Shown here one piece after another: positions 18,718 to 51,540 of a stretch of 61,401 nucleotides of DNA. Every line of letters begins with the position of its first letter. Within the stretch, counting starts at the first letter, position 1. A model generated the notes under the pieces. It was not told the DNA's origin, ran no database searches, and worked only from the letters and a program-made list of their open reading frames with translations. The translations under genes and the position numbers were made by a program. Source of the DNA: a virus (lineage: Duplodnaviria; Caudoviricetes); the IMG/VR virus record IMGVR_UViG_3300036805_000115, positions 1 to 61,401 of that record, one strand, 5' to 3'.

Positions 18718-18733
18718 AAACTTCCCACGCTAA

Positions 18734-18832
18734 GCCGACACTCAGATCGGTAAGCGCGCGGATTGGTTCCACCAGTACGCCGACACTCAGATCGGTAACT
18801 GCCCCTCGCATGGACGGCACTCAGACCGGGAT
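18734..18832 (+). repeat. Three hairpins sharing the loop CACTCAGA in the capsid gene leader
   Basis: GCCGA-CACTCAGA-TCGGT at 18734 and 18779; CGG-CACTCAGA-CCG near 18815. Confidence 0.75.
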
Positions 18833-18878
18833 CGCGAGCCCACTGTCAACTTCTGCAACTCGAAAGGGAGGTTTCGTC

Positions 18879-32000: not shown

Positions 32001-33041
32001 ATCACGCAGGTGGACCGCAACAACTTCGACTCGTGGTTGAAGGGTGTTCTGTCGACCGGCGGGTATGCGATGGACTCCCGCAACCAGCAGAAAACCATCG
32101 GCGGCACCGGGTATGCGGGTGGTGGCTACACCGGTGACGGCGGCAAGTGGGATCCCGCGGGCATCGTCCACAAGGGCGAGTGGGTCGTCCCTCAGGAGCA
32201 GGTTCACCCGGGAACAATGCCCTTGCTGCAAGCCATCAACCAGGGTCTGGTGCGCGGCGGCGACGGGGCAGCCATGCTCGGCTACGCCGGTGGTGGTCTC
32301 GTGGACGCTGCCGCGAAATCCGTGTACATGGGCGCCAACCTTGGCGCCGCGTATCTGGCGACGAGCAACGCCCGCGGCGTCATGGGGTTCCCGGCCATGC
32401 CCGCCCTGCCGAAGTACGACCCAGCTTCCGCGATCGTGGGCCTCGCCGGGGTGGCGGTGTCGGGTGCCCGCGGGTCGAACCGGAACATCGTGCTGGAGAC
32501 CTGGAAGCAGTTCGGCTGGACGTCCCCGGCGGAGATCGCCGCCACGGACTACTTGCTGATGCGGGAGTCTGGCTACAACAACCTGGCCCAGAACCCGACC
32601 TCCACGGCGTTTGGCATGTTCCAGTTCCTCAACAGCACGTGGGCTGGCTACGGGGTTCCCAAGACTGCGGACCCTGCGCTCCAGGCTCTGGGGGGTGGCC
32701 GGTACATCTCCTCCCGGTATGGGGATCCGCTGGGCGCCGCCGCGCATGAGCGAGCCCTCAACTGGTACGGCGTGGGCGGCCTGGTGAAGAAGCCTGCCGC
32801 CTACGACAACGGGGGCCCGCTCATGCCGGGCTGGTCCACGGTTTTCAACGGCACCGGGGCACCTGAGAACGTGCGCACCTCGGCACAGGAGGACCAGCTG
32901 TTGGCGGAGCTTCGCGGGATCCGCAAGGCACTGGGGAAGGCCGGAAACACCTACAACATGCCGATCCACAACGCCCGGAATCAGGAAATGGACCTGCAGG
33001 CGCAGATGCGGCGCATGGAAATCACGGCGGGAATTCTGTGA
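29028..33041 (+). CDS. Tape measure protein with a C-terminal lytic transglycosylase domain
   Basis: 1337 aa, Ala-rich helical; GGYTGDGG..PAGIVHKGE; MRESGYNNLAQNPTSTAFGMFQFL..TW. Confidence 0.95.
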   Translation: MAMASDLSFNIVALDQAGATFIRLAEQVDHLSEKLDRLDHKDVTATVNVKTDESTKALDSFSNRFALLTGAIVAGSPVAGAAILGGIGASFIGIAALAEKSNADVQASYKNLWSSVVSIAKQGSDPLVANFVSSANAMEAEAQKLAPQLQQAFSYAGPDLVALTRGVDDFADRSMPGITAAAANSLPVFQGVASAADALGQSVGQSLSSASQYSTQYGVVISSLGQVAGSVLTGVVSLVNDVAVVWAQNSGPIVADVRQIIGVVTDLGQGALPIVSSGVAVVAATIHDLLSILGPVAPILGTVGGVALTTWAAFKTAGLVTAGVNSLAMSVVSLGGEMEAGAAKAAAQAAALQGVAVESSTTAVAVRAAGAATATASLQVGAGLSAIAGPLGIMAAVTLGVLTLGSAMSSSGNDSLQLSGGMDGVTAALQRSHGAFDQAAQDALKADPAYKAASDSASQLGISQDTLFAAITKGGPALDDLRSKVAASGEAGWHAIPAYQALVTNFSDMRIGAGGTIEAIDGQGRAAQNLAPQLDALAHQFGISTAVAADSAAKQDSASAALSTSSGYAEAAAGTASLLGLSLAQVTTGYQGVISAGGVANATVAGTSEAFLKNTLAVAQSATEMQDHFVQADRQVAQSSQAVADAQHGVAQAAQSVADAQHGVEQAERGVVDAQQGVANAAHAVEQAQRSLGDAYAGVTTAEQNYTRAQESAREAQDSLNKAREQAIQDLKDLQLQMQDQVLTEEQAAVKLFDAQTTAAAAGVTPDNAKDIASQDVTAGNEAQMKVAFDLISAQNALNNAQNNGVKLREQVTAAEKAGVDGASGVVSAQKALRSAQDQVASSATALTKAHQSVQDAEYGVQQAELGLQKAHQQVTDAGWALQKAHLGVRDAQYQQTRASQQLTQASLQLRDAQDQSSRSLDIHTAAGQRNIQMILQMWDSLTKSGLPIQDQYRQAIDNVAGAFGISRDKASDYLKQLGLIPKDFQYSVTAITQVDRNNFDSWLKGVLSTGGYAMDSRNQQKTIGGTGYAGGGYTGDGGKWDPAGIVHKGEWVVPQEQVHPGTMPLLQAINQGLVRGGDGAAMLGYAGGGLVDAAAKSVYMGANLGAAYLATSNARGVMGFPAMPALPKYDPASAIVGLAGVAVSGARGSNRNIVLETWKQFGWTSPAEIAATDYLLMRESGYNNLAQNPTSTAFGMFQFLNSTWAGYGVPKTADPALQALGGGRYISSRYGDPLGAAAHERALNWYGVGGLVKKPAAYDNGGPLMPGWSTVFNGTGAPENVRTSAQEDQLLAELRGIRKALGKAGNTYNMPIHNARNQEMDLQAQMRRMEITAGIL

Positions 33042-36934: not shown

Positions 36935-37876
36935 ATGACCGAACCGACCCGGGTCGCCGGCAAGCTCGGCAGACTCCCGCACGACCCCGACAGGCCCGCG
37001 CTGAAACTCGGGCCGTTCCTGACGGGCGCGCTCTCCCCGAACCCGACGGCCATCGACTGGCTCTCGAGCGTCAAGGTGTGGCCGATGTACGGCAACGACC
37101 GGTACGGGGACTGTGTGTGGGCCGAGATCGGGCACCACATCGAGGTCGTCACCACCTACGGGCAGGGCGCGAACGTCACTGTCTCCGACGCGGCGATCCT
37201 CAAGGGCTACTCGGACGTCACCGGCTTCGACCCGGCCGACCCGTCGACAGATCAGGGCACTGTCATCGCCGACGCCTTGTCGTACTGGCGCAAGACCGGA
37301 GTCGGCGGCCACAAGATCCTCGCCTACGCGAAGGTCGACCACGCTAACCCCGCCGAGGTCGAGGCCGCGATCAACCTCTTCGGCGCGGTCATGGTGGGAG
37401 TGAACTTCCCCAAGTCGGCGATGGACCAGTTCAACGCCGGGAAACCCTGGGATGTTGTCCCGCACGACGGCGGGATCGAAGGCGGTCACGCGATCCTCGT
37501 CGGCGCCTACCAGCCCGGCGAGTACGACGGCGTGACATGGGGCGCGCGCGAGCCGATCACCGACGCCTGGTGGTTCAAGTACGTCGAGGAGTGCTGGGCG
37601 GTCATCGCCCCCGAGTGGATCAACGCCCAGGGCGTCTCACCGAAGGGGATCGACCTGCATGGGCTGGGTGAGTACTTCGCCACCCTGACCGGCCAGGCGA
37701 ACCCGTTTCCCCAGCCCGCTCCCGGCCCCACCCCGGGCCCGGTGCCGCCTGTGGCAGACGCTGACGCGGCTCTGGCGGCAGTTCTGGAGCCGTGGGTGAA
37801 ACATCGCCACACCGGGGAAAACCACGTGGTGCAGGTCGAAGCCCTGCAGTGGCTGTCCGCGAAAGGCTTCGCCTGA
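36935..37876 (+). CDS. Papain-like (C1-type) cysteine peptidase
   Basis: NDRYGDCVWA (Cys), GGHAILVGAY (His), TWG. Confidence 0.7.
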   Translation: MTEPTRVAGKLGRLPHDPDRPALKLGPFLTGALSPNPTAIDWLSSVKVWPMYGNDRYGDCVWAEIGHHIEVVTTYGQGANVTVSDAAILKGYSDVTGFDPADPSTDQGTVIADALSYWRKTGVGGHKILAYAKVDHANPAEVEAAINLFGAVMVGVNFPKSAMDQFNAGKPWDVVPHDGGIEGGHAILVGAYQPGEYDGVTWGAREPITDAWWFKYVEECWAVIAPEWINAQGVSPKGIDLHGLGEYFATLTGQANPFPQPAPGPTPGPVPPVADADAALAAVLEPWVKHRHTGENHVVQVEALQWLSAKGFA

Positions 37877-38886
37877 TGCTCATCGACGTCAGCCACCACC
37901 AGAACGACGCGGGCCCCATCAACTGGGCCACCGCCGATCCGGCCATCGACGGTGGCTACGTCAAGATCACCGAAGGCGCCGGCTACGTCGACCCGAAATG
38001 GCGCCTCAATCACGACGGGCTCGTCGGCATCGGCGACTACGTCGGCGGCTACCACTTCGCCAGCCTCGGCGATCCCGAGGCGGAAGCGAACCACTTCGCC
38101 GACATCTACCTCGCGGCGTCGTGGAACCTGCGGCCCGTGCTCGACATCGAGTCCGCCGGCTCGACCGCGACGTGGCTCAAAGCGTTCCGTGCGCAGTTCC
38201 GCAAGCGGGTCGGGGCGAACGCGTTCCGGGTCTACACCTCGTACTCGCTGCTGAAAGGCGCGCTCGCCCCGGCTGGGTGGATCGACGCCGACACCGACAT
38301 CTGGGCTGCGCGCTACAACACCACGCTCGGCTGGACCCATCCGCAACTGGTGCTGTGGCAGAACTCGTCAACCGCAGCGGTCCCCGGATTCGTGGGCTCC
38401 GTGGACGTCGACCAGTACCAGAACGGCTGGACCCCGGCCGCCGATCAAGGAGCCGACATGACCCCCGATCAGATTGCGGATCTCTTCAACCGACTGAAGT
38501 GGCTGGAGCAGAGTCAGCGCACCATCTCCAGTCAGTTCACCGGCAACCCGAACGGCGACCCTGCCTTCAGCGCGGACATGAAACCGATCCCGCTCACCCC
38601 GTGGGGCTGGAAGCAGCTGGACGGGAATGGCCTGGTCGACGGGATCGCGAACATCCCGAACAAGGTCTGGGCCCAACAGCTCAAGACTCCGGGGTGGGAA
38701 GACCCGAACCGCGCGGTCGCCGCTGGGGTGATCGTCGGGAACGCCGACGCCCACACGAACCAGGTCCTCGACGCGATCGGGAAACTCTCGGTCGGCGGCG
38801 TCGACGTGAACGCACTTGCCGACGCGCTCACGAGCGCGCTCGGTCCGGAGGTGGCGAAAGCCATCGGAGAGAAACTGGTGGCCTGA
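37876..38886 (+). CDS. Endolysin, GH25 muramidase
   Basis: IDVSHHQ, KITEG, GGYHF, VLDIE, LWQ.S, VDVD. Confidence 0.92.
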   Translation: MLIDVSHHQNDAGPINWATADPAIDGGYVKITEGAGYVDPKWRLNHDGLVGIGDYVGGYHFASLGDPEAEANHFADIYLAASWNLRPVLDIESAGSTATWLKAFRAQFRKRVGANAFRVYTSYSLLKGALAPAGWIDADTDIWAARYNTTLGWTHPQLVLWQNSSTAAVPGFVGSVDVDQYQNGWTPAADQGADMTPDQIADLFNRLKWLEQSQRTISSQFTGNPNGDPAFSADMKPIPLTPWGWKQLDGNGLVDGIANIPNKVWAQQLKTPGWEDPNRAVAAGVIVGNADAHTNQVLDAIGKLSVGGVDVNALADALTSALGPEVAKAIGEKLVA

Positions 38887-39186: not shown

Positions 39187-39225
39187 GCCCCCCGCGTTCC
39201 TTCGGGAGCGCGGGGGGCGTTTTTT
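39187..39225 (+). terminator. Rho-independent terminator ending the late operon
   Basis: GCCCCCCGCGTTCC-TTCG-GGAGCGCGGGGGGC followed by a T-tract. Confidence 0.9.
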
Positions 39226-39230
39226 CGTGC

Positions 39231-39692
39231 CTACGAACCGAGTGTCAACGTCAAGACGGCGTGGACCTGGGACGCGTCGACAACCTGCCTGCCGCGGGCC
39301 GACACGCTCACCACGTAGGTGGGCAGGCCATCAGGCACATCCGGAACCTCGAAGGCGAACTCACACGCCGACAGCACATCCATCGCCGGGATGCCCGCGA
39401 CCGGGATCGCGTCCCGGTGGGTGAAGTGCGGGACCCCAGTCGCCAGGGCGCCGGTGCCGATGGTCGCCCCGGTCGCGTTCTGCACCGTCACTGCGGTACC
39501 GGGCTGCATGTCGGAGTAGCCGCCCGCGCCGCGGCAGGTCTGGCCGGTGGAGTCCTGGAGCACCCCGGAGGCGTCGGTGAGGTCAACGGTGCCGGACAGC
39601 GTGAAAGTCTCCACTGCCGCTGGCGTAGAAGGGGCGGAGGAGCAGCCTGTCAGCGTAACGACGGCCGCGGCGATGAGGACGAGGCGTTTCAC
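39231..39692 (-). CDS. Lipoprotein
   Basis: Signal peptide with LTGC lipobox; CRGAGGYSDM.PG..VTV. Confidence 0.75.
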   Translation of the reverse strand: MKRLVLIAAAVVTLTGCSSAPSTPAAVETFTLSGTVDLTDASGVLQDSTGQTCRGAGGYSDMQPGTAVTVQNATGATIGTGALATGVPHFTHRDAIPVAGIPAMDVLSACEFAFEVPDVPDGLPTYVVSVSARGRQVVDASQVHAVLTLTLGS

Positions 39693-40550
39693 GCCCGGAA
39701 GTCGGCGGCCCGGCCCGCCGCGTTACGGCTGCCCATTGAGGAGCGTTTGTCGCGGGCGTCGCGTCGGGCGGCCATCATGTCCGGCCACGTCCCACCCTTG
39801 CGTCCGCCGGCGATCCAAAGCCCGGCGGCGATGAGTCCCACGAGCACGGCTGCGTCCTTGATGCGTCGCTTCACGACGTTCCTTTCGGTGGGGACCTATA
39901 GCGGAACCCCCGACCCTGCAGGGGCAGCATCGGGGGTTCCTCACACGCCGGGCTGTGCGGCATCCGCGTGCTCGGTTCAGGAAACGCGGACACCCCGGCG
40001 CAGTCAGGGGATGTTGTGGTTCATGTAGTTGGCGGTGGGGCACGGCCAGGGGTAGCTGCAGGATGCGCAGTGTTGGCCGTGGTGCTCCCGGCATTTCTTG
40101 TGCTCGCTGGTCGCCGCATGTCCGGCCAGGATCTCGACGTGACCGTCGGCGCCGGCGATGTGGATGTCGCCGTTGAACGATTCGAAGATGTCGGGCATCA
40201 GTCGCCTTCCTTCTCTAGTTCGGCGACGGCGCGCGGGTCGGTCTCGACGACCTTGCAGATGCGGCACTGGGGCGGGTTTTTCATGGCGCGGTCCCAGCTG
40301 GTCTGTTCACCCTGGAGGCCGCATCCGGTGCGGAGTGCCCGGGCGCGGGTCTTCATGGTCGTCACAACGGTCAGGTGGTCGCCCTGAGCGAAGGGCCGCC
40401 ATTGGGCCTTCGCTGTCCGGGGTGTGTTGGTGGACACAGCCGACCAGGGTAGTACCCACACGTATGCATAGGGAAGCACACGTGAGCAAACGTTGAGATG
40501 CGGACGCGTTCCTTGGGAAAGGTGCGCAGGCCGACGCGTACGTTGATCAT

Positions 40551-40802
40551 GTGAGCCGACGCCAGTTCGTACCCGAGCCAGACGGCCCGGTCTACCTGTA
40601 CGTGCAGCTGGCGGACTACCTTGCTGAGCTGATCTCGGCCGGAGAACTGCCGGTCGGCGGGCGGCTACCGGGCGAGCGGGACATGGTTGAGGAGTACGGC
40701 GTCTCGATTCGCACTGTTCGCCGGGCGGTGGAAGAACTGAGGGACCGTGATTTGGTGCAGACGGTGCCGGTCAAGGGGACGTTCGTGGTGAAGCGGGACT
40801 AG
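40551..40802 (+). CDS. Stand-alone GntR-family wHTH regulator
   Basis: YVQLAD...G.RLPGERDM...GVS..TVRRA...GTFV. Confidence 0.9.
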   Translation: MSRRQFVPEPDGPVYLYVQLADYLAELISAGELPVGGRLPGERDMVEEYGVSIRTVRRAVEELRDRDLVQTVPVKGTFVVKRD

Positions 40803-40803
40803 G

Positions 40804-40853
40804 TGTGTAGCGCGCTTGACAGGGTGTCCCGTAGATGTGTAGCGTGCTTTACA
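40804..40853 (+). promoter_or_regulatory. Promoter with two operator repeats
   Basis: TTGACA-N18-TAGCGT overlapped by TGTGTAGCGCGCTTGACA and TGTGTAGCGTGCTTTACA. Confidence 0.65.
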
Positions 40854-40882
40854 TACCGGGTACCGCGAGCACGGAGGACACC

Positions 40883-41308
40883 ATGACCACCACCTACGCC
40901 GCCCACATCGTCACAGACGCAGACCAGGGCTACGGCGACCCCGAGATCGTCATCATGACCGACGCCGCCGACGATGGATCAGCAGATTTCATCGCCAGCT
41001 ATCCACTCGACGGAACGGTCGAGCCCGACGCGGTACTCGCCGACAGCAACTGGCGCACGGTTGGCGAGCCGACCGAGGTGGACCGTGGATACACCATCGT
41101 GTCGGTCGTGCCCGCCGATGCGCTGATGCTGATCGGCCAGGCGACATTCTCGCGAGGACAAGCCGACCATGAGGCGCGGCGCAGGCAAACGGCATGGGAG
41201 ACGCTGGTCCGGGACGCGATGCTCGATGGCGGCTCGGCGGTCGCGATCGCCGAGGTGGCTGGAATCTCGCGGGAGCGGGTGTACCAGATCAAAGACGGAC
41301 GCCGCTGA
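40883..41308 (+). CDS. Protein with a C-terminal HTH
   Basis: GGSAVAIAEVAGISRERVYQI; RBS GGAGG. Confidence 0.75.
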   Translation: MTTTYAAHIVTDADQGYGDPEIVIMTDAADDGSADFIASYPLDGTVEPDAVLADSNWRTVGEPTEVDRGYTIVSVVPADALMLIGQATFSRGQADHEARRRQTAWETLVRDAMLDGGSAVAIAEVAGISRERVYQIKDGRR

Positions 41309-41550
41309 CGCGCGCGCCGCAATCCGCCAGCCAGCCTCACCTAGTTGGCCCGTCCTCGCGCGGGTCGCCATATCCCGGTGGCGGTGTCCACCCCTCGGCC
41401 AGCACCGCGGCTACAGCGCGCTCGGCGTCGCCGACCAGGAACGGCACGGTGCGTCGCGTGACCGAAGACTGCACACGCTTGTGGATCGCGTGGGCCAGCC
41501 GCTCACGCTCGCGCTCGAACCCGGCCACCTGCCCACCTGCTGCTCCTCGG

Positions 41551-42048
41551 TCAAGGCTTCCACTCCTCACGGCAATCCGGGTGTCCGGCGTGCGGCAGAG
41601 CGAGCAGGCGCAGGGTGGGGCAGCCAGTCGCAGGACCGATCACCGTCGGCGGCGTTCCGGGCGGGGTCATTTGATGCCACCGGTGGCCACATTCGGCGCA
41701 CTTCCGGGTGTCCCAGTACCAGTTCTCCAGATGCTTGTCCGGATGGTGGAGGTCGATGATCCGCCGTTTGGCGTCCACCTCGGCCAGCACACGGGCCGGA
41801 TCATGGCGGGCGACGTGTTCACTTTGGCCGTCGAGGTCGCTCATGACGTAGATCTGCTCGTTGAAAAGCACGGACGCGTTGTCCACGTCAATCGCGGTCA
41901 CGTTCTGCCCAGCTCCGTTGGCGTAGGACAGGCGGCGACCGCCGACGACCTTCCAACGCCTCCGGTCCCCGAAGTCGAACAGCCAGCGGTTGGCGATCTC
42001 CTCGTCCTCGTCGAGTCGGGCGCGGAGGAACGCGATCAGGTCATCCAC
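41551..42048 (-). CDS. DUF6221-like protein
   Basis: MDDLIAFLRARLDEDE...HVARHDPARVLAEVDAKRRI...TLRLLALP. Confidence 0.75.
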   Translation of the reverse strand: MDDLIAFLRARLDEDEEIANRWLFDFGDRRRWKVVGGRRLSYANGAGQNVTAIDVDNASVLFNEQIYVMSDLDGQSEHVARHDPARVLAEVDAKRRIIDLHHPDKHLENWYWDTRKCAECGHRWHQMTPPGTPPTVIGPATGCPTLRLLALPHAGHPDCREEWKP

Positions 42049-42511
42049 GAGCAGGTTCCCTTCCGATCTCTTCGCGCCAGCGATGCCCGCATGTACGGCA
42101 TTCTCGATCTATCTGCACACTCAGCAGTTCCCGGCGCACCACCCGGGTTTCGATCTCGATGGGCGCCGACATGTCCGCGACGACCTGAGCCGCGTCTGGC
42201 CCGACGATTTCGCCCACCCTTACCGCCTGGCCAGTGTGCTCACGATGGATCTCGCCGAACAAGTGATGCAGGCTTGTGAGACACCTCGGACACGTCGTCC
42301 ACGCCTGCACCTTGTCCACGGGCTCAAGTCGAGGGCAGTTATGGATGTACTCATGGGTCGCGTACAGGCGCCTGTCGTCGAGATCCTTGACGATATAGAC
42401 GGCGCCGCCACCTCGAAATTGGTCGCGCTTGTTGACCGCGTGCACCGTCATCGGACCGTGCGTCGGGTCAACGAACCGGTATCCAGGCGGGAACGCAATC
42501 AGGTCATCCAC
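42041..42511 (-). CDS. Hypothetical Zn-ribbon protein
   Basis: CPRC...ECRTCGHRW; begins with the same MDDLIAF as its neighbour. Confidence 0.55.
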   Translation of the reverse strand: MDDLIAFPPGYRFVDPTHGPMTVHAVNKRDQFRGGGAVYIVKDLDDRRLYATHEYIHNCPRLEPVDKVQAWTTCPRCLTSLHHLFGEIHREHTGQAVRVGEIVGPDAAQVVADMSAPIEIETRVVRRELLSVQIDRECRTCGHRWREEIGREPARG

Positions 42512-43441
42512 GGGAGCTGTTCCGTTCCATCCAGGGTGACCCGTCTATGCGCATCGCTCCGCACGCGCACCGGTCGACGCCATCAACGCGGCTGCTTGTC
42601 TGCGCCCAGCAACGGTGCCAGCGACGAGGCACCTTCGCCTCAAACCACGGCACCCCATCCTTATGCGTGATCCCCCGCCCGGCCTCAGCCTCGGCCAGTC
42701 CGGCCCGCAGGTCGCGCGGTATCGCCCAACCCTCATTGTCGAACTCCGTCGCGTCCAGTTCGTCCACGGGTTCCCGCTGGTCGCTGGCGTACAGGCTTGT
42801 CCACGCCTGCGCTTCATCGCCCTCTAGCCTCTTCCCCGATGGCAGAATGAGACCAGCGTCCGGTCCGAAATTTGCGCCGCCGAGGATCCGCAGTACGGCT
42901 TCGTCCTCGTCCATCGTTACCCCTCTTCTCGTCTCAGCCCGGGCTTTGCCATTCCGGCAACGACCGGATGGTGATGATGTCCGGCAAGGTCAGGCCATCC
43001 TTGCGCTTACCGTGATCTCGACACCACTTCTCGACGACCTGATCACGAGCGAGGATCAAACCTGCGTAGTCGGGTGCGGTGGACACCATCACGTCGCGAA
43101 CCTGGTCGGATCGCACGGTCTGGAACTCGTCGTGCGTGCCTCCGAACGGGATCCACTGTGGCCTCACATCCGCGATCATCCCCGCGTCGATCGTGACGCC
43201 CGGGTTCCGCACCGCCCGGCCACGCAGGTCCGCGACCCAGGCCCGACCGTTCGGCCCGGCGACCGCCCGTAACTCGCCCTGCGGCGTGCCACTGATCCGC
43301 GCCAACTCGACTGGGGCCCGGGCAGGCCTGATCCCGATCTTTCTGTGCCATCCGATGGTCACGGGCACCCCTCTTCTCGTCTCATCAGTCTGGCACCCAA
43401 GTGCCGCCGCGCCCCGAAGAACGCGGCGGCACTGGAGGCAA

Positions 43442-43666
43442 TCAACTGGGGCACTTGTCATTGACGCCGATCACGACGGCCGCCGACGGTGTCACCTGGA
43501 CCGCCTTCGTGTGGTTGGTGTGCCACCGCTCGTGGCACGTGACCGTCGTGCCCCGCACCGAATCCACCCTCCACTCCGGGGAGATCCCCACCAGGAAGAC
43601 GCCGAACACGAACAAGCCAACGAGGACGAGAAACGAGACTGCGACCTTCGATCCGATACCGGTCAT
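43442..43666 (-). CDS. Small membrane protein of the transfer operon
   Basis: N-terminal TM; coupled to the transglycosylase gene. Confidence 0.55.
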   Translation of the reverse strand: MTGIGSKVAVSFLVLVGLFVFGVFLVGISPEWRVDSVRGTTVTCHERWHTNHTKAVQVTPSAAVVIGVNDKCPS

Positions 43667-44172
43667 GACCTGTACTCCTTCGCTTTCCCGAGCACGTCAT
43701 TCACGTACTCGGATGAGTGGTTGTAAGAGAAAATTGCCTTCTGCAACTGGCCGGTGGAGGCGCCGTCGTCGCAGAGCTTGTGAGCCGCCGCCGGGATGGC
43801 GTTCCGCGGGTCGTAGATGGACGGACCCACGTCGGGGTGCCGTTTCCGCACCCCGTCCCACGTCGGCTGCAGGAACTGCATCGGCCCCTTCGCCCCCGCG
43901 AAGTTCGCGCCGGAATGCACCCCCGGCAACTTCGACTGGCCGTGGTTCGTCTCCACGTAGCCGATCGCCGCGAGCGATGCCCAATCCAGTCCCTTGCACT
44001 TCGGGGCGGACTGGTACAGGGCGTAGTAGTCAGCCGGGATGCCGTGCGCACTGCTGCCGCTCGCGGCACCACCGGACGGGTTGATCGCCTCAGCGGCAGG
44101 CTTGGAGAGGGCGACGACAGCAACCGCGACCACAAGCCACGGCCATGCGCCGCCCGAGGATTTCGGGGACAC
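43663..44172 (-). CDS. Secreted lytic transglycosylase (SLT family)
   Basis: Signal peptide; LAAIGYVETNHG, GAKGPMQFL..TW, AIFSYN.S..YV..V. Confidence 0.88.
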   Translation of the reverse strand: MSPKSSGGAWPWLVVAVAVVALSKPAAEAINPSGGAASGSSAHGIPADYYALYQSAPKCKGLDWASLAAIGYVETNHGQSKLPGVHSGANFAGAKGPMQFLQPTWDGVRKRHPDVGPSIYDPRNAIPAAAHKLCDDGASTGQLQKAIFSYNHSSEYVNDVLGKAKEYRS

Positions 44173-44271
44173 TGGGGTCTCCTGGTGCTCGAATGGGTAC
44201 GGGGACTCCCCGGCCGGGCGCGCGTTCCGCCAAGATCGATCGCGCCCGGGCGGGGCCTTACTGTGAGTCGT

Positions 44272-44454
44272 TCACCAATCCGGCTTCTCGCCGCGTCGCT
44301 GCGCCATGCGCCGCAAGGCGGCCGCGTCCGAACTGGTCGTGTCCTTGTTGCCGTCCTGGTCAATCGGACCCTTGTAGCCCGACTCGCGCAGGTCGAAGAA
44401 CTTCTTGTCCTTCGGCGTCTCCGGCTTGCGGTCCCAACGTCGTGACTTGCCCAT
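44272..44454 (-). CDS. Small basic hypothetical protein in the transfer operon
   Basis: DKKFFDLRESGYKGPIDQDG. Confidence 0.5.
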   Translation of the reverse strand: MGKSRRWDRKPETPKDKKFFDLRESGYKGPIDQDGNKDTTSSDAAALRRMAQRRGEKPDW

Positions 44455-44673
44455 CTCGATCACTCCTTCCACCGGCCGCGCTGGATCCATTCCAGGTCGG
44501 CCTTCAGTCGCGCCTTCCGCCGGTTCTCCGGAGTCTCGGCTTCAGCCTTCGCCGCCGCGGCCCGCGCGCGAGCTTTCTTCGCGATCTCAGCGTCCAACCT
44601 GGCGTCCTCCGCCAGCCGCTTCTTCAACTGCCGACGACTCACCCGATCCATGCCATCTCCTTCCTCGTGATCG

Positions 44674-44798
44674 AAAGTGGAACAAGGAGTGGACCACCGG
44701 CAGGCAAGTGGAAACCAACTCCGGCAGCCACTTGCCCCGTCCACTCGTACTGACCTGCAGAAACAGGGGAAAAGTGGATGAAGGGGAACGAGTGGAAC
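44674..44798. repeat. clt-like locus: clustered AGTGGA repeats directly downstream of traB
   Basis: AGTGGA at 44676, 44688, 44707, 44773, 44791; reverse copies at about 44728 and 44740; 9-bp inverted repeat GGCAAGTGG/CCACTTGCC. Confidence 0.6.
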
Positions 44799-44808
44799 GG
44801 CATCCAGA

Positions 44809-46983
44809 TCACCCCCGATCCGGGTCGTTTTCGCGGCGCGCGATCGCGGCCCGAACCTCAGCCAGGCGCACCATCGGCGACCCGTCCTTCAGCCGAACCG
44901 GCACACCCTGCTGCTGCCGCAACTGCCCGGCCAGAGCCTCACCCGACAACCCTGAGTAGGCGTCGGACATGTCCCGCAGCCTGCGCGCGACCTGGGGTGC
45001 GTACTCGTCCTCCCCGCGCAGCGCGGCCAGGACATCGGCCAGCAGATCCCGCACCTCCGCGGTCTCGCCGACCTCCACGGTTGTCGCCCACCGCCGGGCC
45101 TCCAGCGCGTGCTCAGCCACAGCAAACCCGTCGCTGCCGGAGATGTAGTGCGTGAACACCGTCTCCGAGGACTGCCCCTGCGGGATCGGCACACCGGGCC
45201 CGGTCACGATCACCACCCCGCGGTTCTCTGGGCGCAGCTCGTGCGGGGCGGCGCCAGCGCCGAACGCCTCATCGCCCATCGCCATGCGAGCCTGCTTGTC
45301 ATCCGCCAGCTTGAGGCTGGCCCGGATGTGCGCGCCGTCGCGGGCGAGTTTGGGAAAGTTCTGGTCAGTGGGGTTCTGGGTGCCCTGCCACAGCAGCACG
45401 TTCACCGCCCGGCCCTGGTTCTGGATCTTGCGCACCGCGGCAAGGAACCTGCTGTTGTTGGCCTTCCCGCCGTACGGCACCTTCTGCTCGTCGACCGCGG
45501 GGCACGTGTACGCGACCTGCGCTTCGTCGACGATGAAGACGATCGGATGGAACCCCAGCAGCCCCTCCGGCACGCCGTCCGGGTACTTGTCCGAGTCGAA
45601 CCCCTGCAGGCGTGACTCCAGCTCGTCGACCCCGTCTTCAAGCATCTCGGTCGCATTCACAACGTGCGTGTCGGTGGGGCCCTTGACGTACTCGGTGCAG
45701 AAAGGGCGCAGCGGGTTCCAGTCCCCGATGCCTTTCAGGTCGGCGCATCGGAACTCGACGGTCGGATCGTGCGCCAGCCACAACGCCAAGGCGCGAAGTG
45801 CAGCGGTCTTCCCCATGTTCGACAGACCGGTGATGAGCAGGTGCTTCTGCCAGAGATTGACCCCCACGACCCGGTCACGGAGGTTCTTCCCCCACGGCGC
45901 CGTGTCCCGCGCCATCGACACCCGGCCGGGCGGGTTCGTCACCAGCGGGGACGGCTCGATCGGCTCGGCCAGCGCACCGGGATCGGCGATCCACAGCTGC
46001 AGCGCGCGGGCCTGCTGCGGGACCGTGAGGAACAACTCGTGCTCGTGGCGCCCCAGATTCTCGGCGAGCCGCTGACGACGCTTCTTAATGTCGCCGGTGG
46101 AGATCCCCGAGGGGAACTGCACCGTCACTTCGACGCCGCGCCCGGCGAGGACGATCGTTGACAGCATCCCCGCCCCGCCGTCCTCCATCGCGTCGATCTT
46201 CTTGCGAAGCTCCGAAATCCCCAGGTCACGTACCGCTTTCACCACGATCGCCGGGGTGACGTGGTCGAGGTCCGCGCGCCGCTGCGCCGGAGTCTGCAGC
46301 CATACCGGCGGGGTGGCGTGCTTCCTGCCCTCCCGCCATGCGGCGAACACCAGCAGAAACGGTGCGGCGATCAGGAACGGCGTCCACACCCAGGCGACCA
46401 CCTGCGCGATCGTGAACACCGTGTCGATGACACCCATCACCACGGACCCGAACCGTCCGCCGGCCAGCTGGGCGACGACACCCGCGACCAGCGTGAACAC
46501 GACCACCACCACGAACACGATCACTGCGGTCGTCACGTAACCACGCACGATCTTGGGCAGGGCCTCACGCCGCTCCGAGCGCGACACCAGCGCCGCCTCC
46601 TGCCGGTCCATCCACTCGGCGAGCGCGACCTTGTCCCCGGCCTGCTCCGCGGCGCGGACCTGCCGGCGGTAGACGCGCATCGTGGACGCGTCGAGCCCCC
46701 GATGCCACCACGACGCCACGCCCTGCAGGACCGCGACAGCATGACGACCGAGCCCGCGGGCGACCCTGTGGGTCCGGTCGTCCTTCGCTATCCGCACCAC
46801 CGGCGTCGCGATGCGCCGAGCGATCGCAATCCGCGGCTGCGGCTCGGTGACGAGCTCTCCCTCAAGCGGGCCGTCAGCCTCAACAGGCTGAGCTGCAGCC
46901 CGCTTCTCGATCTCCTTTCCGGGTTCGACCCGGTCCGGGTCGTCCGGTTCCCGGCCACGGAAAGGAATGACCCTGCCGCTCAT
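44809..46983 (-). CDS. traB: TraB-like FtsK/SpoIIIE conjugative dsDNA translocase
   Basis: N-terminal TM pair; HLLITGLSNMGKT Walker A, ADLKG, IVFIVDEAQ Walker B, QGRAV..GTQNP; C-terminal wHTH-like domain (RDLLADV...). Confidence 0.85.
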   Translation of the reverse strand: MSGRVIPFRGREPDDPDRVEPGKEIEKRAAAQPVEADGPLEGELVTEPQPRIAIARRIATPVVRIAKDDRTHRVARGLGRHAVAVLQGVASWWHRGLDASTMRVYRRQVRAAEQAGDKVALAEWMDRQEAALVSRSERREALPKIVRGYVTTAVIVFVVVVVFTLVAGVVAQLAGGRFGSVVMGVIDTVFTIAQVVAWVWTPFLIAAPFLLVFAAWREGRKHATPPVWLQTPAQRRADLDHVTPAIVVKAVRDLGISELRKKIDAMEDGGAGMLSTIVLAGRGVEVTVQFPSGISTGDIKKRRQRLAENLGRHEHELFLTVPQQARALQLWIADPGALAEPIEPSPLVTNPPGRVSMARDTAPWGKNLRDRVVGVNLWQKHLLITGLSNMGKTAALRALALWLAHDPTVEFRCADLKGIGDWNPLRPFCTEYVKGPTDTHVVNATEMLEDGVDELESRLQGFDSDKYPDGVPEGLLGFHPIVFIVDEAQVAYTCPAVDEQKVPYGGKANNSRFLAAVRKIQNQGRAVNVLLWQGTQNPTDQNFPKLARDGAHIRASLKLADDKQARMAMGDEAFGAGAAPHELRPENRGVVIVTGPGVPIPQGQSSETVFTHYISGSDGFAVAEHALEARRWATTVEVGETAEVRDLLADVLAALRGEDEYAPQVARRLRDMSDAYSGLSGEALAGQLRQQQGVPVRLKDGSPMVRLAEVRAAIARRENDPDRG

Positions 46984-47732
46984 TCCTCATCAGCCCCGTC
47001 AGCTGATGCGACAGCCCGCCGGTCGTTCGTCACCATGCGCGCCAGCACTGACGCCAGGCCGAGCACGGCGACCGGGACACAGGCCACCAGGGCGGTGATG
47101 CCCCACGGTGCGGTGTGCACCCCGGCGGCAGACATGACGTGGTAGCCGACCTGCGCGAGCGCGCCCACCGTCAGGCTGATGAGCGCCGACCACCCGGCAA
47201 ACCTGGTGGTCCGGGCGCTGTACATCCCAGATGCGAGCCAGCAACCGACCGCGTACGCCCCGTACGCCTCGACGCTGATGGGCAGGACGATCGCGCTGTT
47301 GAGCCTGACGTCATCAGCCAGGCCGGGAAGGAGCTGGATGTCGCCGAACCCGGTCATCTGGCCGAGTCCGACCCAGCCGCCCCACACGGAGACGCCCGCG
47401 CCGAGCGCGATGACGAGGAGCGGCCAGGTGTGCCGGAGATGCGGGAACCGGCCGCCGCGTGGGGCCTGGTCGTCAGCTGTCGTGTCCTGCTGGCCGCTGC
47501 CGCCGTCCTCGCGCCTGATCGTCTTGAGTGCCGTCTGCACGGCGTGGCTGGTGAGTCCCGTGAGTTTGACGAGCGTCGGTCGCCCGGGGGATCCCTCTCC
47601 GCGGTCCACTGCGTCGGCGATGGCCTGACGCACGATGTCGACCGGTGATGGCTCGACGACCGTCAGGTCCGCGCGGTGCTCGTCGTTGCGTGCCGGTGAT
47701 CGTTCCGGGTCCGGCTGGGGACTACGGTTCAC
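46980..47732 (-). CDS. Spd-like multi-TM spread protein with an N-terminal HTH-like segment
   Basis: About four TM segments, VWGGWVGLG...LPISVEAY...VACVPVAVLG; ATGA-coupled to traB. Confidence 0.6.
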   Translation of the reverse strand: MNRSPQPDPERSPARNDEHRADLTVVEPSPVDIVRQAIADAVDRGEGSPGRPTLVKLTGLTSHAVQTALKTIRREDGGSGQQDTTADDQAPRGGRFPHLRHTWPLLVIALGAGVSVWGGWVGLGQMTGFGDIQLLPGLADDVRLNSAIVLPISVEAYGAYAVGCWLASGMYSARTTRFAGWSALISLTVGALAQVGYHVMSAAGVHTAPWGITALVACVPVAVLGLASVLARMVTNDRRAVASADGADEE

Positions 47733-47872
47733 GTGGGTCCACTCCTTGGGTGGATCAAGGGCCTCGGGCGCGGTGAGGTCGCTGCCCGGGGCCCGCCTGC
47801 ACTACTACTTGCTGCCGTCCGTCGGCCCGGTCCGTCGTATGCCGCTTCGACACCCCACTCCGAGGTGCTGGC

Positions 47873-48151
47873 TCATCGCGTCCAGTCCTTGACGTTGCCG
47901 CAGTAGATGTCCTTGGCCGCGAGCTGCTCGTTCACCGTTGCACCCCGCATGGCCTCGGCCATCAGCCGGTTCGCCCGGGAGCCGTCTTTCATCGCGCCGT
48001 AGGCGGCGCGTTCGTCGGCGCGCCACGCTGCGACGAGCTGTCGCACCTTGTCTGCCCGCGGGCCCGGCGTACGGGGCTGCCGGCGCGGCCACAGCGCGGC
48101 GGTCACGACCACCGCCCCGATGGTGAGCCACACGACGGTCTGGGTGGTCAT
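47873..48151 (-). CDS. Small membrane-anchored protein, first gene of the transfer operon
   Basis: N-terminal TM; RBS AAGGAG. Confidence 0.55.
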   Translation of the reverse strand: MTTQTVVWLTIGAVVVTAALWPRRQPRTPGPRADKVRQLVAAWRADERAAYGAMKDGSRANRLMAEAMRGATVNEQLAAKDIYCGNVKDWTR

Positions 48152-48244
48152 CGCTTCTCCTTCGCTGCCGTGGACCCGGCCGGTGGAATCCGGGGGCGGG
48201 ATCAACCACCGGCCGGGCTGCGCCGCCAACTTCCAGCGGCACAG

Positions 48245-48286
48245 GTGACATCATATGACCTCATGTGATGTTATGTCACGTGTCAC
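48245..48286. promoter_or_regulatory. Kor-type operator/divergent promoter region
   Basis: GTGACAT...ATGTCAC inverted repeat plus extra TGAC/GTCAC boxes between the tra operon and the GntR gene. Confidence 0.55.
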
Positions 48287-48318
48287 GGAGAAATATTCGG
48301 ACATGAGAAGTCACTAGG

Positions 48319-48600
48319 ATGTCGACCATGCAGAGGGACGAGGACCGCAGTGACCGGCTCGACAAAGACGGGCCGGTCACGCTGTCACATCAGGTGGCTG
48401 ACGACATCCGGGCCGACATCGGCGACGGGAAGCTCGCTGCCGGCGAACGACTTCCGCCGCTTGCGGATCTGTGCGAGATCTACGGGGTGTCCGCGCCGAC
48501 CATCCGGAGCGCGGTCGAGGAGCTGGCGCGCGACGGGAAGGTGTCGGTGGTCCGCGGCAAGGGAACTTTCGTGGCCGGTTCTGACACAAACCCTACATAA
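48319..48600 (+). CDS. GntR-family repressor (KorSA/TraR-like)
   Basis: QVADDIRADI..G....GERLP...YGVSAPTIR.A...GKGTFV; divergent from the traB operon. Confidence 0.85.
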   Translation: MSTMQRDEDRSDRLDKDGPVTLSHQVADDIRADIGDGKLAAGERLPPLADLCEIYGVSAPTIRSAVEELARDGKVSVVRGKGTFVAGSDTNPT

Positions 48601-48737
48601 ATGACAGCACATGGGTGCAGATGAGCGCACGCGAGAGCAAAGACAATTGCTCGCGCCGCAACCTCTGAACGGGCAAAGAACAAATGAGAACAACTGTAAG
48701 CGCCTGAGCGCAAACCTAGAAAATCAAGACCCATTGC

Positions 48738-48774
48738 TCAGCGGGTTCGGGGTTCGAGTCCCTGTTGGCGCACC
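48738..48774 (+). other. attP core matching the 3' half of a tRNA, most like tRNA-Lys(CTT)
   Basis: TCAGCGGGTTCGGGGTTCGAGTCCCTGTTGGCGCACC (T-arm plus acceptor strand) about 70 bp past the integrase stop; no 5' half present. Confidence 0.8.
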
Positions 48775-48847
48775 GAGGCCCAGGTCAACGACCTGGACCC
48801 TTCGCTTTTCTAGATCCACATCTCCAGTTCTGACAGAAACCCGACAT

Positions 48848-50044
48848 TTACTCGGCCTCCCCATCGTCATCGAACATCGACTCCAGGGCCGCCGCGGACG
48901 CGGCGTTCGCGATCCGCTTCGGCCGGTAGTGTCGCTCCACAACCTCCGGCGTGTTGCCCAACTGGTCGGCGATGGCGTTGTTCGACAGCCCTGCCTCGTC
49001 CAGGACATGGCTCACCGTCTTGCGCCACACGTGCGCCGTGACCCAGTCGAAGCCGCACTCGTTCATCGCGAGCCGGATCCGCTTGTTCGTGTTCCGCGGA
49101 TCGAGCCAGCCGCCCGTCCCCGACGGAAACAGCGGCCCACCTCTCGCGGCGAGCCTTCCCCACATCGGCACCGACCAGTTCGGCACCGCCAGCAGCAGCG
49201 GCGGCTGGCGGCCCTTGCGTCCAGGGAACCGCAAGAGGCCGGCGCCCTTCTGTCGCACAATGTGGTGTCTGATGTGGACGGTTTGCGTCATCGTGTCGAC
49301 GTCGTCACCGTCGAGGGCCAGTAGCTCTCCCAATCGCACGCCAGTGGCGAGCATGGCCCGCACCAGGTCGGGCAGCTGGCGCCATACGTCCGCTCGCGTC
49401 CCCAGGGAGCGTCCCCGCTTATCCGCTGCGCGCTCGACCGCGAACGCCTCAAGCCTCTCCAGGAGGTCGTCGCGCTGTTCGCGAGTCATCGCCTTGACCT
49501 CGCGCTGCTCCTGGCGGGTCAACTGCGCCAGCGACTTCACCGGGTTCGCGTCCATCGCGCCGAACCGCACCGCATATCCACACACCGACGACAGCACCGA
49601 CTTCACCGACGCCGCCGTGGGGTAGCTCTTCTCGAGCGCCTTCTTCACCAGCCTGTCGCAAGCGAAGGCGCGAAGCTCCCTTGCCTGAAGCTGGCCGATG
49701 GCGGGTTTGATCCACAGCCGGATGTAGCGCTCGTACGTTTCGGCCGTCGTCGGCGACTTCTTGTTCAATCGCTGGCTTTCGGCGAAGTCCGCGATCCACA
49801 GGTCGCAGATCCGCGCCATGCGGGTCTCAGACTTGATCTCCTGGCTGCGGATCTCGTCCGCCATGTCCCGCAGCGCTTCCTTGAGCCGGTCTTCGGCGGC
49901 CGTCTTCGTCGGGCCGCGGCGGCCCACCGGTTTGTAGGCGCCGTCGACCATGCGGAAGCGGGTAAACGCTTCCCAGGTCTTGGGGGCGACACGCTTGGTT
50001 TTGATTCTGCCGTAGGTGCCGACGGGGGTGGGTGGTCGTCCCAT
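48848..50044 (-). CDS. int: Tyrosine integrase
   Basis: ATGVRLGELLAL (R), HVWRKT (HxxR), QLGN...HY (Tyr). Confidence 0.95.
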   Translation of the reverse strand: MGRPPTPVGTYGRIKTKRVAPKTWEAFTRFRMVDGAYKPVGRRGPTKTAAEDRLKEALRDMADEIRSQEIKSETRMARICDLWIADFAESQRLNKKSPTTAETYERYIRLWIKPAIGQLQARELRAFACDRLVKKALEKSYPTAASVKSVLSSVCGYAVRFGAMDANPVKSLAQLTRQEQREVKAMTREQRDDLLERLEAFAVERAADKRGRSLGTRADVWRQLPDLVRAMLATGVRLGELLALDGDDVDTMTQTVHIRHHIVRQKGAGLLRFPGRKGRQPPLLLAVPNWSVPMWGRLAARGGPLFPSGTGGWLDPRNTNKRIRLAMNECGFDWVTAHVWRKTVSHVLDEAGLSNNAIADQLGNTPEVVERHYRPKRIANAASAAALESMFDDDGEAE

Positions 50045-50140
50045 GTGTCGAGTCCTCCGTTTCAGCACGAGTATGCTCGCCGGTTTGCGAAATCGAGGGA
50101 AGAGCGGGGCTGCGCAGGGTCCGGACGCGCGCCCTCGCGT

Positions 50141-50515
50141 CTATCGTCGATCGCGGATATCGGGAAGGAAGCTGATCGTTTCGGTATCGGCTCTGCGGAG
50201 TTTCGGGATGGCCCACTCCACGAGATCCTCGGTGTTGCGGTCGTCGATACGGCGGTGCACCTCGCCGAAGCGCACATCGACGCGTTTGGCAAGCAGCCGG
50301 GACCATGCGAACCCGGCGGCGGCGAGCGCGATGATGACGATGGTCGCGACCTGCCAGTTGGGGATCGCTTCGGGTGCGATCATCGCCAGATAGATGATGA
50401 AGCTGCTGAGGATGCTAATGGTCCCCGGCAGGACGTACGCCTCACCGCCTAGTCGCACCGGATCTTCATTGTCATGATGAGGGCTCCCCGTAACACTGCT
50501 CCGTTGCATGTTCAC
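50141..50515 (-). CDS. Two-TM membrane protein between repressor and integrase
   Basis: Two hydrophobic helices; lies in the lysogeny operon. Confidence 0.55.
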   Translation of the reverse strand: MNMQRSSVTGSPHHDNEDPVRLGGEAYVLPGTISILSSFIIYLAMIAPEAIPNWQVATIVIIALAAAGFAWSRLLAKRVDVRFGEVHRRIDDRNTEDLVEWAIPKLRRADTETISFLPDIRDRR

Positions 50516-50635
50516 TCACTTGCTGTTGGTTAGTCACTCCATGTGTGGTGGTGACGTTGGTCCCCCGGTAGATCGTTGATCCACACTCGGTCGTTAATGG
50601 TCCAGTAGCTTTCGGACAGTTGCACCCGGCAAATT

Positions 50636-51076
50636 TCACCCGGACGCAGCATTTTCTCCCCCGCTGGGGTTAGCAGGGTGCCCTCCTCGCGGGTTAGCCC
50701 GATTGACCCAATCTATGAATCCCTGCGGGCCGAGTTCCCGCGCCAGAAGGCGAAGCTGGTCCTTCGTGTAAACCTGTTCACCGTGGACATACGACTCGGT
50801 TTCCGCCTGCTCGGCGGGGTTGTCGGTGAGGGTCTTTAGCTCTCCACTGAGGACACGCTGCATCCTTCCAAGTGGAATGTGCAAGGCGAGTTCGATCTGG
50901 TTGTAGATCGACTCCGAGAACCTCTTCTTGCCGCGCTCGATCTCGTACATGGTGGTACGGCCAACGCCTGCCACTTCTGCCAGATCGTCTGCGTTCTTGA
51001 ACGTCGGCCTGCGCAGGTTCCTGATGAGGACGCCCAGGCGTTTCCGCCGGGCCTCCTGCGTCTCCTCGTGCTCCAC
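50636..51076 (-). CDS. Immunity repressor (XRE/Cro-C1 HTH)
   Basis: LGVLIRNLR...DDLAEVAGVGRTTMYEIERG; divergent from the early lytic genes. Confidence 0.8.
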   Translation of the reverse strand: MEHEETQEARRKRLGVLIRNLRRPTFKNADDLAEVAGVGRTTMYEIERGKKRFSESIYNQIELALHIPLGRMQRVLSGELKTLTDNPAEQAETESYVHGEQVYTKDQLRLLARELGPQGFIDWVNRANPRGGHPANPSGGENAASG

Positions 51077-51129
51077 ACCAGAACAGTGGACTGGCCTAGG
51101 CCTATGGCGCAAACGCGCCCGACCAGCAC

Positions 51130-51275
51130 CTTTGACACTTCTGACAGTTCTGTCCACAGGCAAAAGTGTACATCTTGCACTGACAGTCCTGTCACTACGC
51201 CATTCGATGACAGTTACCGAACCGTTGCTTGGCATATTTGACACTTTTGGCAGATTCGACATAGAGTCCTGTCAT
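51130..51275. promoter_or_regulatory. Lysis/lysogeny switch operators
   Basis: Repeated TGACA/TGTCA boxes, e.g. CTGACAGTTCTGTC, CTGACAGTCCTGTCA, and TTGACACTT twice. Confidence 0.6.
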
Positions 51276-51540
51276 GCCGATCGCGAAGCCCCGCAAAGGC
51301 GAGCGGCCCCCGACAAAGCCGCAACCCGCGAAGGCTCCCGACCCCAAGCGACCAGTACGGAACGGTGACTAATGACCGACCAAGCCGGATACAGACGGGC
51401 ACTTCGAGTCCGCAAGGGCAGCCAGAAGACCCTCCCGATCCCGGTGGCCGTCCTCGCGCAGCTCGTCGCCGAGCGAGCGCCACGCGTCCTGGTCGAACAC
51501 CTCGGAGGCGAAATGGTCCAGGCGATCAAGGATGCCCCGA

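Follow-up and report, generated by a model that had tools for sequence, protein, structure and literature searches.

Can a tailed phage carry, next to its own attachment site, the genes with which actinomycete plasmids move DNA from hypha to hypha and, if so, could these genes move the phage itself? This question is raised by IMG/VR record IMGVR_UViG_3300036805_000115, a viral sequence of 61,401 bases from a soil metagenome that was analysed at its full length (hereafter, the window). Between its lysis genes and attP/int, a minus-strand tra operon is placed. The original prediction, made from the sequence alone, took this locus for a TraB-type conjugation module like those of Streptomyces plasmids and of the integrative and conjugative elements of actinomycetes (AICEs). 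Two answers of different strength can be given: (i) both the TraB-type cassette and the phage genome that carries it are very probably genuine; and (ii) with a probability of about 0.5, the cassette moves the phage genome between hyphae, so that the phage would spread not only in virions but also by contact and independently of receptors.

The TraB-type ATPase, its candidate target and its candidate regulator

The central gene of the operon (44809-46983, minus strand) encodes a protein of 724 amino acids (aa) which PHROG, BLASTP and model comparisons identify as a TraB-type, membrane-anchored, FtsK-like translocase of double-stranded DNA. It matches phrog_1358 (E 9e-19) and, in pairwise BLASTP, the TraB proteins of pSVH1 (E 9e-18) and pSG5 (E 7e-17) over approximately 400 residues at 24-25% identity; with E. 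coli FtsK (E 0.047) and the FtsK-like protein of mycobacteriophage Wanda (E 0.006), the Walker A region alone is aligned. By tblastn, the ATPase found 20 plasmid records, pSVH1 and pSG5 included, the best match being the Tra protein of NZ_CP108827.1, a 13.5-kb AICE-like Streptomyces plasmid (44% identity over 78%). The same search (E 1e-5) gave no match in 50,697 phage records, a set whose content of pZL12 and pFP4 was not checked. A protein search returned 2305 relatives, of which two metagenome proteins are the closest (P0002, 61%; P0003, 59%), while at 45-55% identity there are many proteins of Pseudonocardiales, Streptosporangiales and Streptomyces. A metagenome scan with alignment A2 yielded nothing above 50% identity and a single-protein scan of viral records with the ATPase yielded no match.

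In a FastTree tree of 135 rows (one row dropped), with local supports only and without actinomycete chromosomal FtsK, the ATPase forms a clade (local support 100) with an Amycolatopsis pithecellobii protein (59%) and the two metagenome proteins just named; when rooted on E. coli FtsK and the Wanda protein, pSVH1 and pSG5 TraB are sister to the whole family. Both BLASTP and tree thus agree with the predicted grouping with plasmid and AICE TraB, and not with E. coli FtsK or phage FtsK-like proteins. The predicted membrane anchor and intact Walker motifs are also borne out: hydrophobic segments (Kyte-Doolittle, cut-off 1.6) lie at residues 153-171 and 181-213, as long helices in the model, and no variation is seen at the Walker A and Walker B residues across 15 sequences (alignment A1). 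An AlphaFold model built from 15 sequences (mean pLDDT 65.9) matches the pCW3 coupling protein TcpA (1.8e-11) and FtsK motor domains (3e-10). In a separate model of the C-terminal 98 residues (pLDDT 83), three helices are followed by a beta hairpin and one more helix, and residues 647-719 are predicted to be a winged helix.

Behind traB lies a candidate clt, that is, five same-strand copies (minus strand) of the 8-bp repeat GTTCCACT, with at most one mismatch, at 44676-44798. The array spans 123 bp and begins 11 nt past the traB stop. As stated in the accessible part of PMC4447253, clt regions hold direct 8-bp repeats to which the cognate TraB binds. Exact k-mer clustering missed this array, which was found by reading the sequence with one mismatch allowed; in the whole window, both strands together hold 56 matches to the 8-mer (at most one mismatch). 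Since the motif was picked after viewing the sequence, a blind comparison was carried out, in which the best 8-mer count in the 200 nt after the stop was taken for 129 loci with a TraB homologue and for 645 random windows of the same loci. At least five copies were present in 76 of the 129 post-traB windows, a figure that overstates the independent support because many of these loci are close kin, and in 60 of the 645 controls (mean best counts, 4.59 and 3.27, respectively). By the same count, pSVH1, whose TraB has been characterised, has seven copies. In many relatives, as in the window, two or three copies lie near the stop and another group 55-90 nt further on. A clt-like array thus stands on phage DNA and, hence, the phage circle is a plausible TraB substrate.

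A related word is found elsewhere on the phage. Four 8-bp units stand in tandem at 376-411, within the gene of the replication initiator (94-822), and are probably origin iterons. In minus-strand reading, the iteron unit contains the 8-mer of one clt-like copy, and a 12-mer of the array recurs (one mismatch) at two other sites only: 44760-44771, in the clt region, and 10472-10483. This shared word could be due to chance or to a link between transfer and replication.

Divergent from the tra operon, a gene at 48319-48600 (plus strand) encodes a short GntR-family winged helix-turn-helix (HTH) regulator of 93 aa (Pfam GntR, E 2.6e-19), a candidate TraR/Kor repressor with 38% identity to the HTH of pSVH1 TraR over 50 aa. 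TraR is itself a GntR repressor and, in the portion of PMC4447253 that is accessible, traB and traR are described as kil-kor pairs. The minus-strand operon has a promoter-like site at 48245-48279 (10 of 12 positions of the -35 and -10 match), overlapped by a 7-nt inverted repeat with arms at 48245-48251 and 48273-48279, a candidate operator. A divergent GntR gene with an operator palindrome had been predicted; the gene and an operator-like palindrome are there, with the correction that the regulator is of the HTH-only form.

All the genes that the original prediction named for the cassette, the transglycosylase among them, are present. From its promoter onwards, the operon contains (i) the 118-aa gene; (ii) the gene of a 250-aa membrane protein; (iii) the ATPase gene; (iv) a 150-bp spacer; (v) two small open reading frames (ORFs); (vi) the transglycosylase gene; (vii) a 74-aa gene; and (viii) four further co-oriented genes. 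The 250-aa protein (46980-47732, minus strand) has two strong and approximately two weaker hydrophobic segments, and its gene overlaps the traB start by 4 bp and is translationally coupled to it. It had been called Spd-like, which holds for position and membrane topology and fails for sequence (no detectable similarity to SpdB or SpdB2). Similarly, of the proposed kor-tra-spd layout, a kor-tra-like order beside attP was found and Spd homologues were not detected. The 250-aa protein is possibly DUF2637-like, a BLAST E of 0.38 and Atlas scores of 0.81-0.83 being weak leads only.

The first gene (47873-48229, minus strand; third-position GC content, GC3, 0.88) encodes 118 aa with one weakly hydrophobic segment, which scores 1.58 (hand sum), just below the cut-off of 1.6; no Pfam, NCBIfam or PHROG match was obtained, nor any tblastn relative among the TraB loci compared. 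Behind the spacer, a small basic ORF without family match (44460-44744, minus strand) probably has its true start near 44655, behind a ribosome-binding site. It is followed by a conserved 72-aa protein (44272-44490, minus strand), found by tblastn at 50-74% identity near traB in four other loci (L005, L022, L050 and L073). The SLT-type lytic transglycosylase (43663-44172, minus strand; 169 aa) is secreted or membrane-anchored, with an N-terminal hydrophobic segment at 12-30 and a Pfam SLT match of E 1.5e-5 (24.9 bits against a cut-off of 21.3). Its stop is overlapped by the gene of the 74-aa single-pass membrane protein (43442-43666, minus strand; one strong hydrophobic segment). The last four genes (41551-43461, minus strand), which encode proteins of 175, 136 and 156 aa and a DUF6221 protein of 165 aa (E 1.6e-32), may be part of the same transcription unit.

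Two adjacent genes in this last group (41551-42048 and 42041-42511), one of them the DUF6221 gene, are paralogous and have a 23-nt repeat, 96% identical, at their 5' ends (42027-42049 and 42490-42512). A third, weak relative of their PHROG is located in the early region (9348-9827), and a DUF6221 gene is also found 3' of traB in another phage record, G012. At its lysis-side end (within 40551-41308), the cargo region has, on the plus strand, an HTH protein and a second short GntR-family regulator of 83 aa (40551-40802; Pfam GntR, E 3.3e-16). Short GntR genes occur near the integrase in G012 too.

The phage genome, its integration module and the origin of the cassette

Judged by its gene content, the 61.3-kb element is a complete temperate siphophage (Caudoviricetes) of a soil actinomycete. 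The record has a CheckV completeness of 100 and its terminal 127 bases are identical at both ends; it is, therefore, a circular assembly of approximately 61.3 kb. ORFs were picked via GC3 and then scanned with PHROG and Pfam profiles, which returned a complete temperate siphovirus gene set: small and large terminase (13846-16541), portal, S78 protease and major capsid protein (16745-20291), connector and tail genes with Dit and Gp37-like tail proteins, a tape measure of 1337 aa (29028-33041), a GH25 endolysin (37792-38886), integrase and repressor. The large terminase has at most 37% identity to any cultured phage. A strong terminator-like hairpin (39187-39218) stands 3' of the endolysin gene, followed by a leftward gene block (39231-51262). 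The rightward early genes encode an Xis-like HTH protein, an antirepressor, an exonuclease, Erf, an HNH protein and the replication initiator (94-822), which is of phage type (phrog_2149). The virion, lysis and early/replication modules are thus all present, as had been supposed. The phage also has a tRNA-Met (CAT) gene at 11781-11855.

That phage and cassette are joined at all might be an artefact: a phage and an AICE from one soil sample could have been assembled into a chimera, or a separate AICE with att sites of its own could be inserted in the phage. This is considered very improbable. Only a single DNA run with the sequence was found, from a soil metagenome that is probably its source, and the coverage check is, hence, not independent of the sample, its contigs having been made by a different assembler. 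These contigs cover 36-54 kb evenly, with depths of 17-27, and one of them (12.5 kb), which leads out of traB, takes in GntR, attP, integrase and repressor and reaches position 54000 or beyond, in the early region. The assembly graph does break at 42008-42047, 44378-44414 and 45379-45408, and short unitigs at the first two of these sites have a depth of about 62-64-fold compared to about 20 for the phage, as a chimera might leave behind; the high-depth unitigs, one of which lies in the 72-aa gene, mark words common to other elements in the same soil. At the two later breaks, the ORFs read through as full-length proteins with homologues. Furthermore, att core and integrase are both single, no direct repeats bounding the cassette were found, and other circular records hold traB together with virion genes. 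The read coverage, proposed beforehand as a check, consequently argues against a chimera, with DNA from this one run.

The attP core, at about 48738-48777 (plus strand), resembles the 3' end of tRNA-Lys(CTT): its best genomic matches fall within tRNA-Lys(CTT) genes, and the best among five genomes is an Amycolatopsis tRNA-Lys (88%). The core has one copy in the window and the tyrosine integrase (48848-50068, minus strand; Pfam and PHROG) is the sole one in the record, the profile search with both databases having given no second; a lack of a second integrase and of a second att core had indeed been predicted. Two 24-nt direct repeats, 88% alike, flank the core (48575-48598 and 48824-48847, plus strand; repeat search) and are candidate arm-type sites. 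Beyond the integrase lie a candidate CI-like immunity repressor with an XRE-type HTH (50636-51262, minus strand; HTH_31, E 2.4e-5, below cut-off), repeated operator-like palindromes (51100-51280) and, near the candidate repressor, a rightward promoter-like site (51238-51267). With such a repressor available, the GntR protein is not needed as phage repressor. Integrase, attP and Xis-like HTH protein point to integration and not to extrachromosomal plasmid maintenance, as judged from these genes and sites; ParA and ParB were not among the family hits of the general scans (Pfam for part of the ORFs, PHROGs for nearly all).

The attP-flanking 24-nt repeats have a short word in common with the palindromes of the immunity region and, therefore, may bind the repressor instead of, or besides, the integrase. 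The core itself, here taken as 48738-48781, matches 17 phage records at 91-97% identity over 36-46 nt, and 16 of these are small Gordonia phages (16-18 kb). In most annotated records, the match underlies a gene annotated as immunity repressor, as would be expected if immunity in those phages depended on integration and if the tRNA-Lys target were a common one.

For the major capsid protein, IMG/VR contains 275 relatives, with those of G453 (96%; 59.6 kb) and G454 (91%; 61.1 kb, circular) at the top. Virion module, lipoprotein gene, integrase (39-41% identity) and Xis-like gene follow one another in these two records as they do in the window, and the cassette genes are all absent. A nucleotide comparison with the backbone relatives covers about 20% of the window, which corresponds to the virion module. 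No TraB homologue was found in the five backbone relatives of at least 59 kb among the 80 relatives listed; two of these 80 (G014 and G018, by contig name) do have TraB homologues, but of another clade. In the slot between lipoprotein and integrase genes, G453 (L253:12124-13172) and G454 (L248:1669-2747) carry pairs of HTH-DUF5753 and DUF397 genes. Since a syntenic integrase occurs in these relatives without TraB, integrase and attP are taken to be the phage's own.

The kin of the cassette are found elsewhere. Homologues of the 250-aa protein (45-57%) are encoded directly upstream of traB at two Kutzneria loci and one Lentzea locus, as well as in phage record G044. The locus of Lentzea atacamensis (L068) is a canonical AICE with a UTRA-bearing GntR, the homologue of the 250-aa membrane protein, TraB, Prim-Pol and a tyrosine integrase. 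Homologues of the window's virion proteins were absent within 10 kb of traB in the best 80 genome loci, and the locus of the nearest isolate homologue (Amycolatopsis, L063) has no phage genes, in a genome without PF04860 portal. The Lentzea match and the lack of virion homologues near the relatives' traB indicate that the kin of the cassette are AICE genes. According to the accessible text of PMC3218068, an AICE consists of Int, Tra and a replication module of the RepSA, RepAM/DUF3631 or Prim-Pol type; Int and Tra are present in the window and an AICE replication module was not found. In this respect, the predicted lack of a rolling-circle or AICE initiator can be extended to Prim-Pol and DUF3631/RepAM, neither of which was detected by profile search (the DUF3631 search being run without a positive control), while RepSA lies outside the profiles searched. 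Given that the integrase belongs to the backbone and that the slot holds other cargo and no TraB in the relatives, the locus is a captured cassette and not a nested AICE.

A captured cassette may, of course, be a mere passenger. Part of an AICE could have been acquired by illegitimate recombination and now serve the lysogen, or nobody, and leave the phage genome where it is; for instance, its genes might be used to mobilise chromosomal DNA or to keep out other AICEs, or might just be on their way to decay. The unrelated DUF5753 and DUF397 cargo of the backbone relatives, which makes the slot behave as a moron site, would suit such a passenger, and so would the non-phage elements in which the nearest relatives reside and a GntR protein that is truncated relative to TraR. 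Nevertheless, the cassette ORFs are all open with a host-like GC3 (0.82-0.88), the catalytic residues are conserved, and the clt-like repeats are retained on the phage DNA, where they would make the circle a substrate if TraB is active. On balance, a passenger role is regarded as rather unlikely, also in view of how often TraB recurs in phages.

TraB in other phages and the possible role of the cassette

An alignment-based scan of IMG/VR gave 47 records with a TraB homologue (32-49% identity). The PF04860 portal is present in 26 of them (25 above the cut-off) and in 13 of the 19 that are at least 90% complete; the window's terminase has a homologue within 10 kb of traB at 13 of the 47 loci. 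On the TraB tree, the portal label requires at least 15 changes. The presence of a portal in so many TraB-bearing viral records, in several clades, suggests selection rather than accident, and a recurrence in many phage lineages makes neutral hitch-hiking of a passenger unlikely.

Two arrangements can be distinguished: (i) 17 of the 26 portal records (hand arithmetic) have traB on the strand of the portal and 3-11 kb upstream of it, at the end of the early arm and before the HNH-terminase genes; and (ii) in the other nine, as in the window, traB is far from the portal or on the opposite strand. The first is exemplified by G025 (35.8 kb; traB at L051:13973-16093) and G012 (41.6 kb; traB at L054:10905-13052), circular and complete small temperate siphophages in which traB is the last early gene before the HNH-terminase, on the main strand. 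In G044 (28.8 kb, circular), the 250-aa homologue and traB stand on the opposite strand behind the tail genes, much as in the window. G025 also has a serine integrase and a full-length GntR/UTRA regulator.

The early-arm position of traB in these 17 records suggests expression within the lytic programme, and it could be argued that TraB has a non-conjugative role in the phage cycle, such as superinfection exclusion or DNA movement across the cross-walls of already infected mycelium only. FtsK-like genes of unassigned role are also found in cultured Streptomyces phages, as far as the accessible parts of the respective papers go, and in mycobacteriophage annotations. Nonetheless, in the window a divergent regulator and a promoter belong to the cassette itself, which stands apart from the early and late operons, and its kin are transfer genes of AICEs, with clt-like repeats. 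Moreover, intramycelial spreading is part of the TraB/Spd mechanism, so that this explanation overlaps with conjugative transfer; as an account of its own, it appears improbable.

If, instead, the cassette does move the phage genome between hyphae, events might proceed as follows. The GntR protein would hold the tra operon off in kil-kor style. Once the operon was derepressed and circular phage DNA available, whether excised or freshly injected, membrane-bound TraB hexamers would dock on the repeats via the C-terminal winged helix and pump the phage genome, in full and double-stranded, into an adjoining hypha or past septal cross-walls, with possible assistance at the wall from the 250-aa membrane partner and the transglycosylase. 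In the recipient, the phage would replicate from its own origin and integrate via its own integrase at tRNA-Lys.

Several observations weigh against transfer of the phage genome by the cassette. Regarding the ATPase: (i) the Pfam FtsK_SpoIIIE match (PF01580; 23.4 bits) is just below the 24-bit cut-off; (ii) a PDB sequence search with the TraB profile came back empty; and (iii) the top Foldseek matches of the C-terminal domain, although all winged-helix DNA binders, are not significant (E 0.14 or worse). Regarding its partners, no homologues of SpdB2, SpdB3 or Spd79 and no recognisable Spd protein were found in the cassette, and the SLT and small membrane genes have no counterparts beside traB among the relatives' loci compared, which makes a transfer role for them a guess. 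The GntR protein has no UTRA effector domain, and the 7-mer of its candidate site is not enriched across the window (9 found, 6.6 expected). The two reservations on the candidate clt given above, a motif chosen by eye and kinship among the loci counted, belong here as well. As to the host, its mycelial nature is inferred from the relatives of the cassette only, the exact 32-nt attP core is absent from 401 sampled genomes of the class, and no RNA runs with the sequence are listed. Finally, a 61-kb phage molecule exceeds the classic AICE substrates in size.

A broader proposal can also be formulated: temperate phages of mycelial actinomycetes would routinely use captured TraB/clt as a second, receptor-independent infection route, by which the circular genome would pass as naked double-stranded DNA to adjoining hyphae and through cross-walls. 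This route would have arisen many times and in two architectures (early-arm traB and a cassette by attP), and in the window phage transfer and re-replication might be coupled via one DNA word. This generalisation is tentative and somewhat unlikely to hold in full.

Comparison with known systems

If the cassette works, a prophage would need neither virions nor receptors nor lysis to enter new cells; resistance based on receptors would not stop it, and it would pass through the mycelium from one compartment to the next. The boundary between phage, AICE and plasmid would be blurred, which bears on the movement of prophages and genes in antibiotic-producing soil actinomycetes. The window is a clean test case, in which integrase and attP are both single, the cassette is self-contained and regulated, and the candidate clt is defined.

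Among the closest known systems are pSVH1 and pSG5. Their loci resemble that of the window in having a divergent GntR gene, membrane genes upstream of traB, an FtsK-like TraB and 8-bp repeats behind traB; furthermore, their TraB is membrane-anchored and has a C-terminal winged helix, a domain that in the window protein is predicted from a model. Differences are found in the TraB sequence (24-25% identity), in the repeat motif, and in the absence from the window of SpdB2, SpdB3 and Spd79 homologues and of UTRA. The carrier is also of another size, since the window is a 61-kb phage and plasmids of the pSVH1/pSG5 type have 12 kb.

The Pseudonocardiales AICEs (pMEA-like elements; L068) and NZ_CP108827.1 have the closest TraB (44-59%) and 250-aa partner (45-57%), and they present tra operon, GntR, attP and int in the same order as the window. 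But while these elements rely on RepSA, RepAM or Prim-Pol and lack virion genes, the window has a phage initiator and an integrase syntenic with that of phages. In the accessible text of two AICE reviews (PMC2440964, PMC3218068), prophages are treated as a separate class and virion genes on Tra-bearing elements are not mentioned.

Among phages, G025, G012 and G044 are complete temperate siphophage genomes with a TraB of the same family (34-44%). Most of the TraB phage records differ from the window in that traB is located in the early arm, upstream of the HNH-terminase genes, and belongs to another TraB clade; among those annotated, a minus-strand cassette behind tail or lysis genes is seen in the window and in G044 only. 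Papers on cultured Streptomyces phages, in the parts accessible, refer to FtsK-like genes in passing only. No description of an integrating tailed prophage with a TraB cassette was found in the literature covered, which excludes most subscription journals.

Nevertheless, the uniqueness implied by the original prediction does not hold. Besides the portal in more than half of the TraB-bearing IMG/VR records, there are the Streptomyces plasmid-phages pZL12/phiZL12 (PMC3583192) and pFP4 (PMC4170104) which, as described in the accessible portions of these papers, are passed on by conjugation in episomal form and, in addition, produce infective particles. Like the window, they combine a tailed-phage genome and a Streptomyces-type tra gene on one replicon, although in the window transfer is represented by the genes alone. 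The former, reportedly of about 90 kb, is said to go back to Zhong et al. in 2010 (J Bacteriol 192:3747), and the latter to Chen et al. in 2012 (Plasmid 68:170). Both known precedents are extrachromosomal plasmid prophages, whereas a tyrosine integrase and an attP of the tRNA-Lys type are found in the window element, with no partition genes seen in general scans; it is, in consequence, an integrating variant of the plasmid-phage. What further sets it apart from these two is that transfer would be entrusted to an AICE-like cassette (GntR, membrane partner, TraB and candidate clt) which is carried as cargo beside attP.

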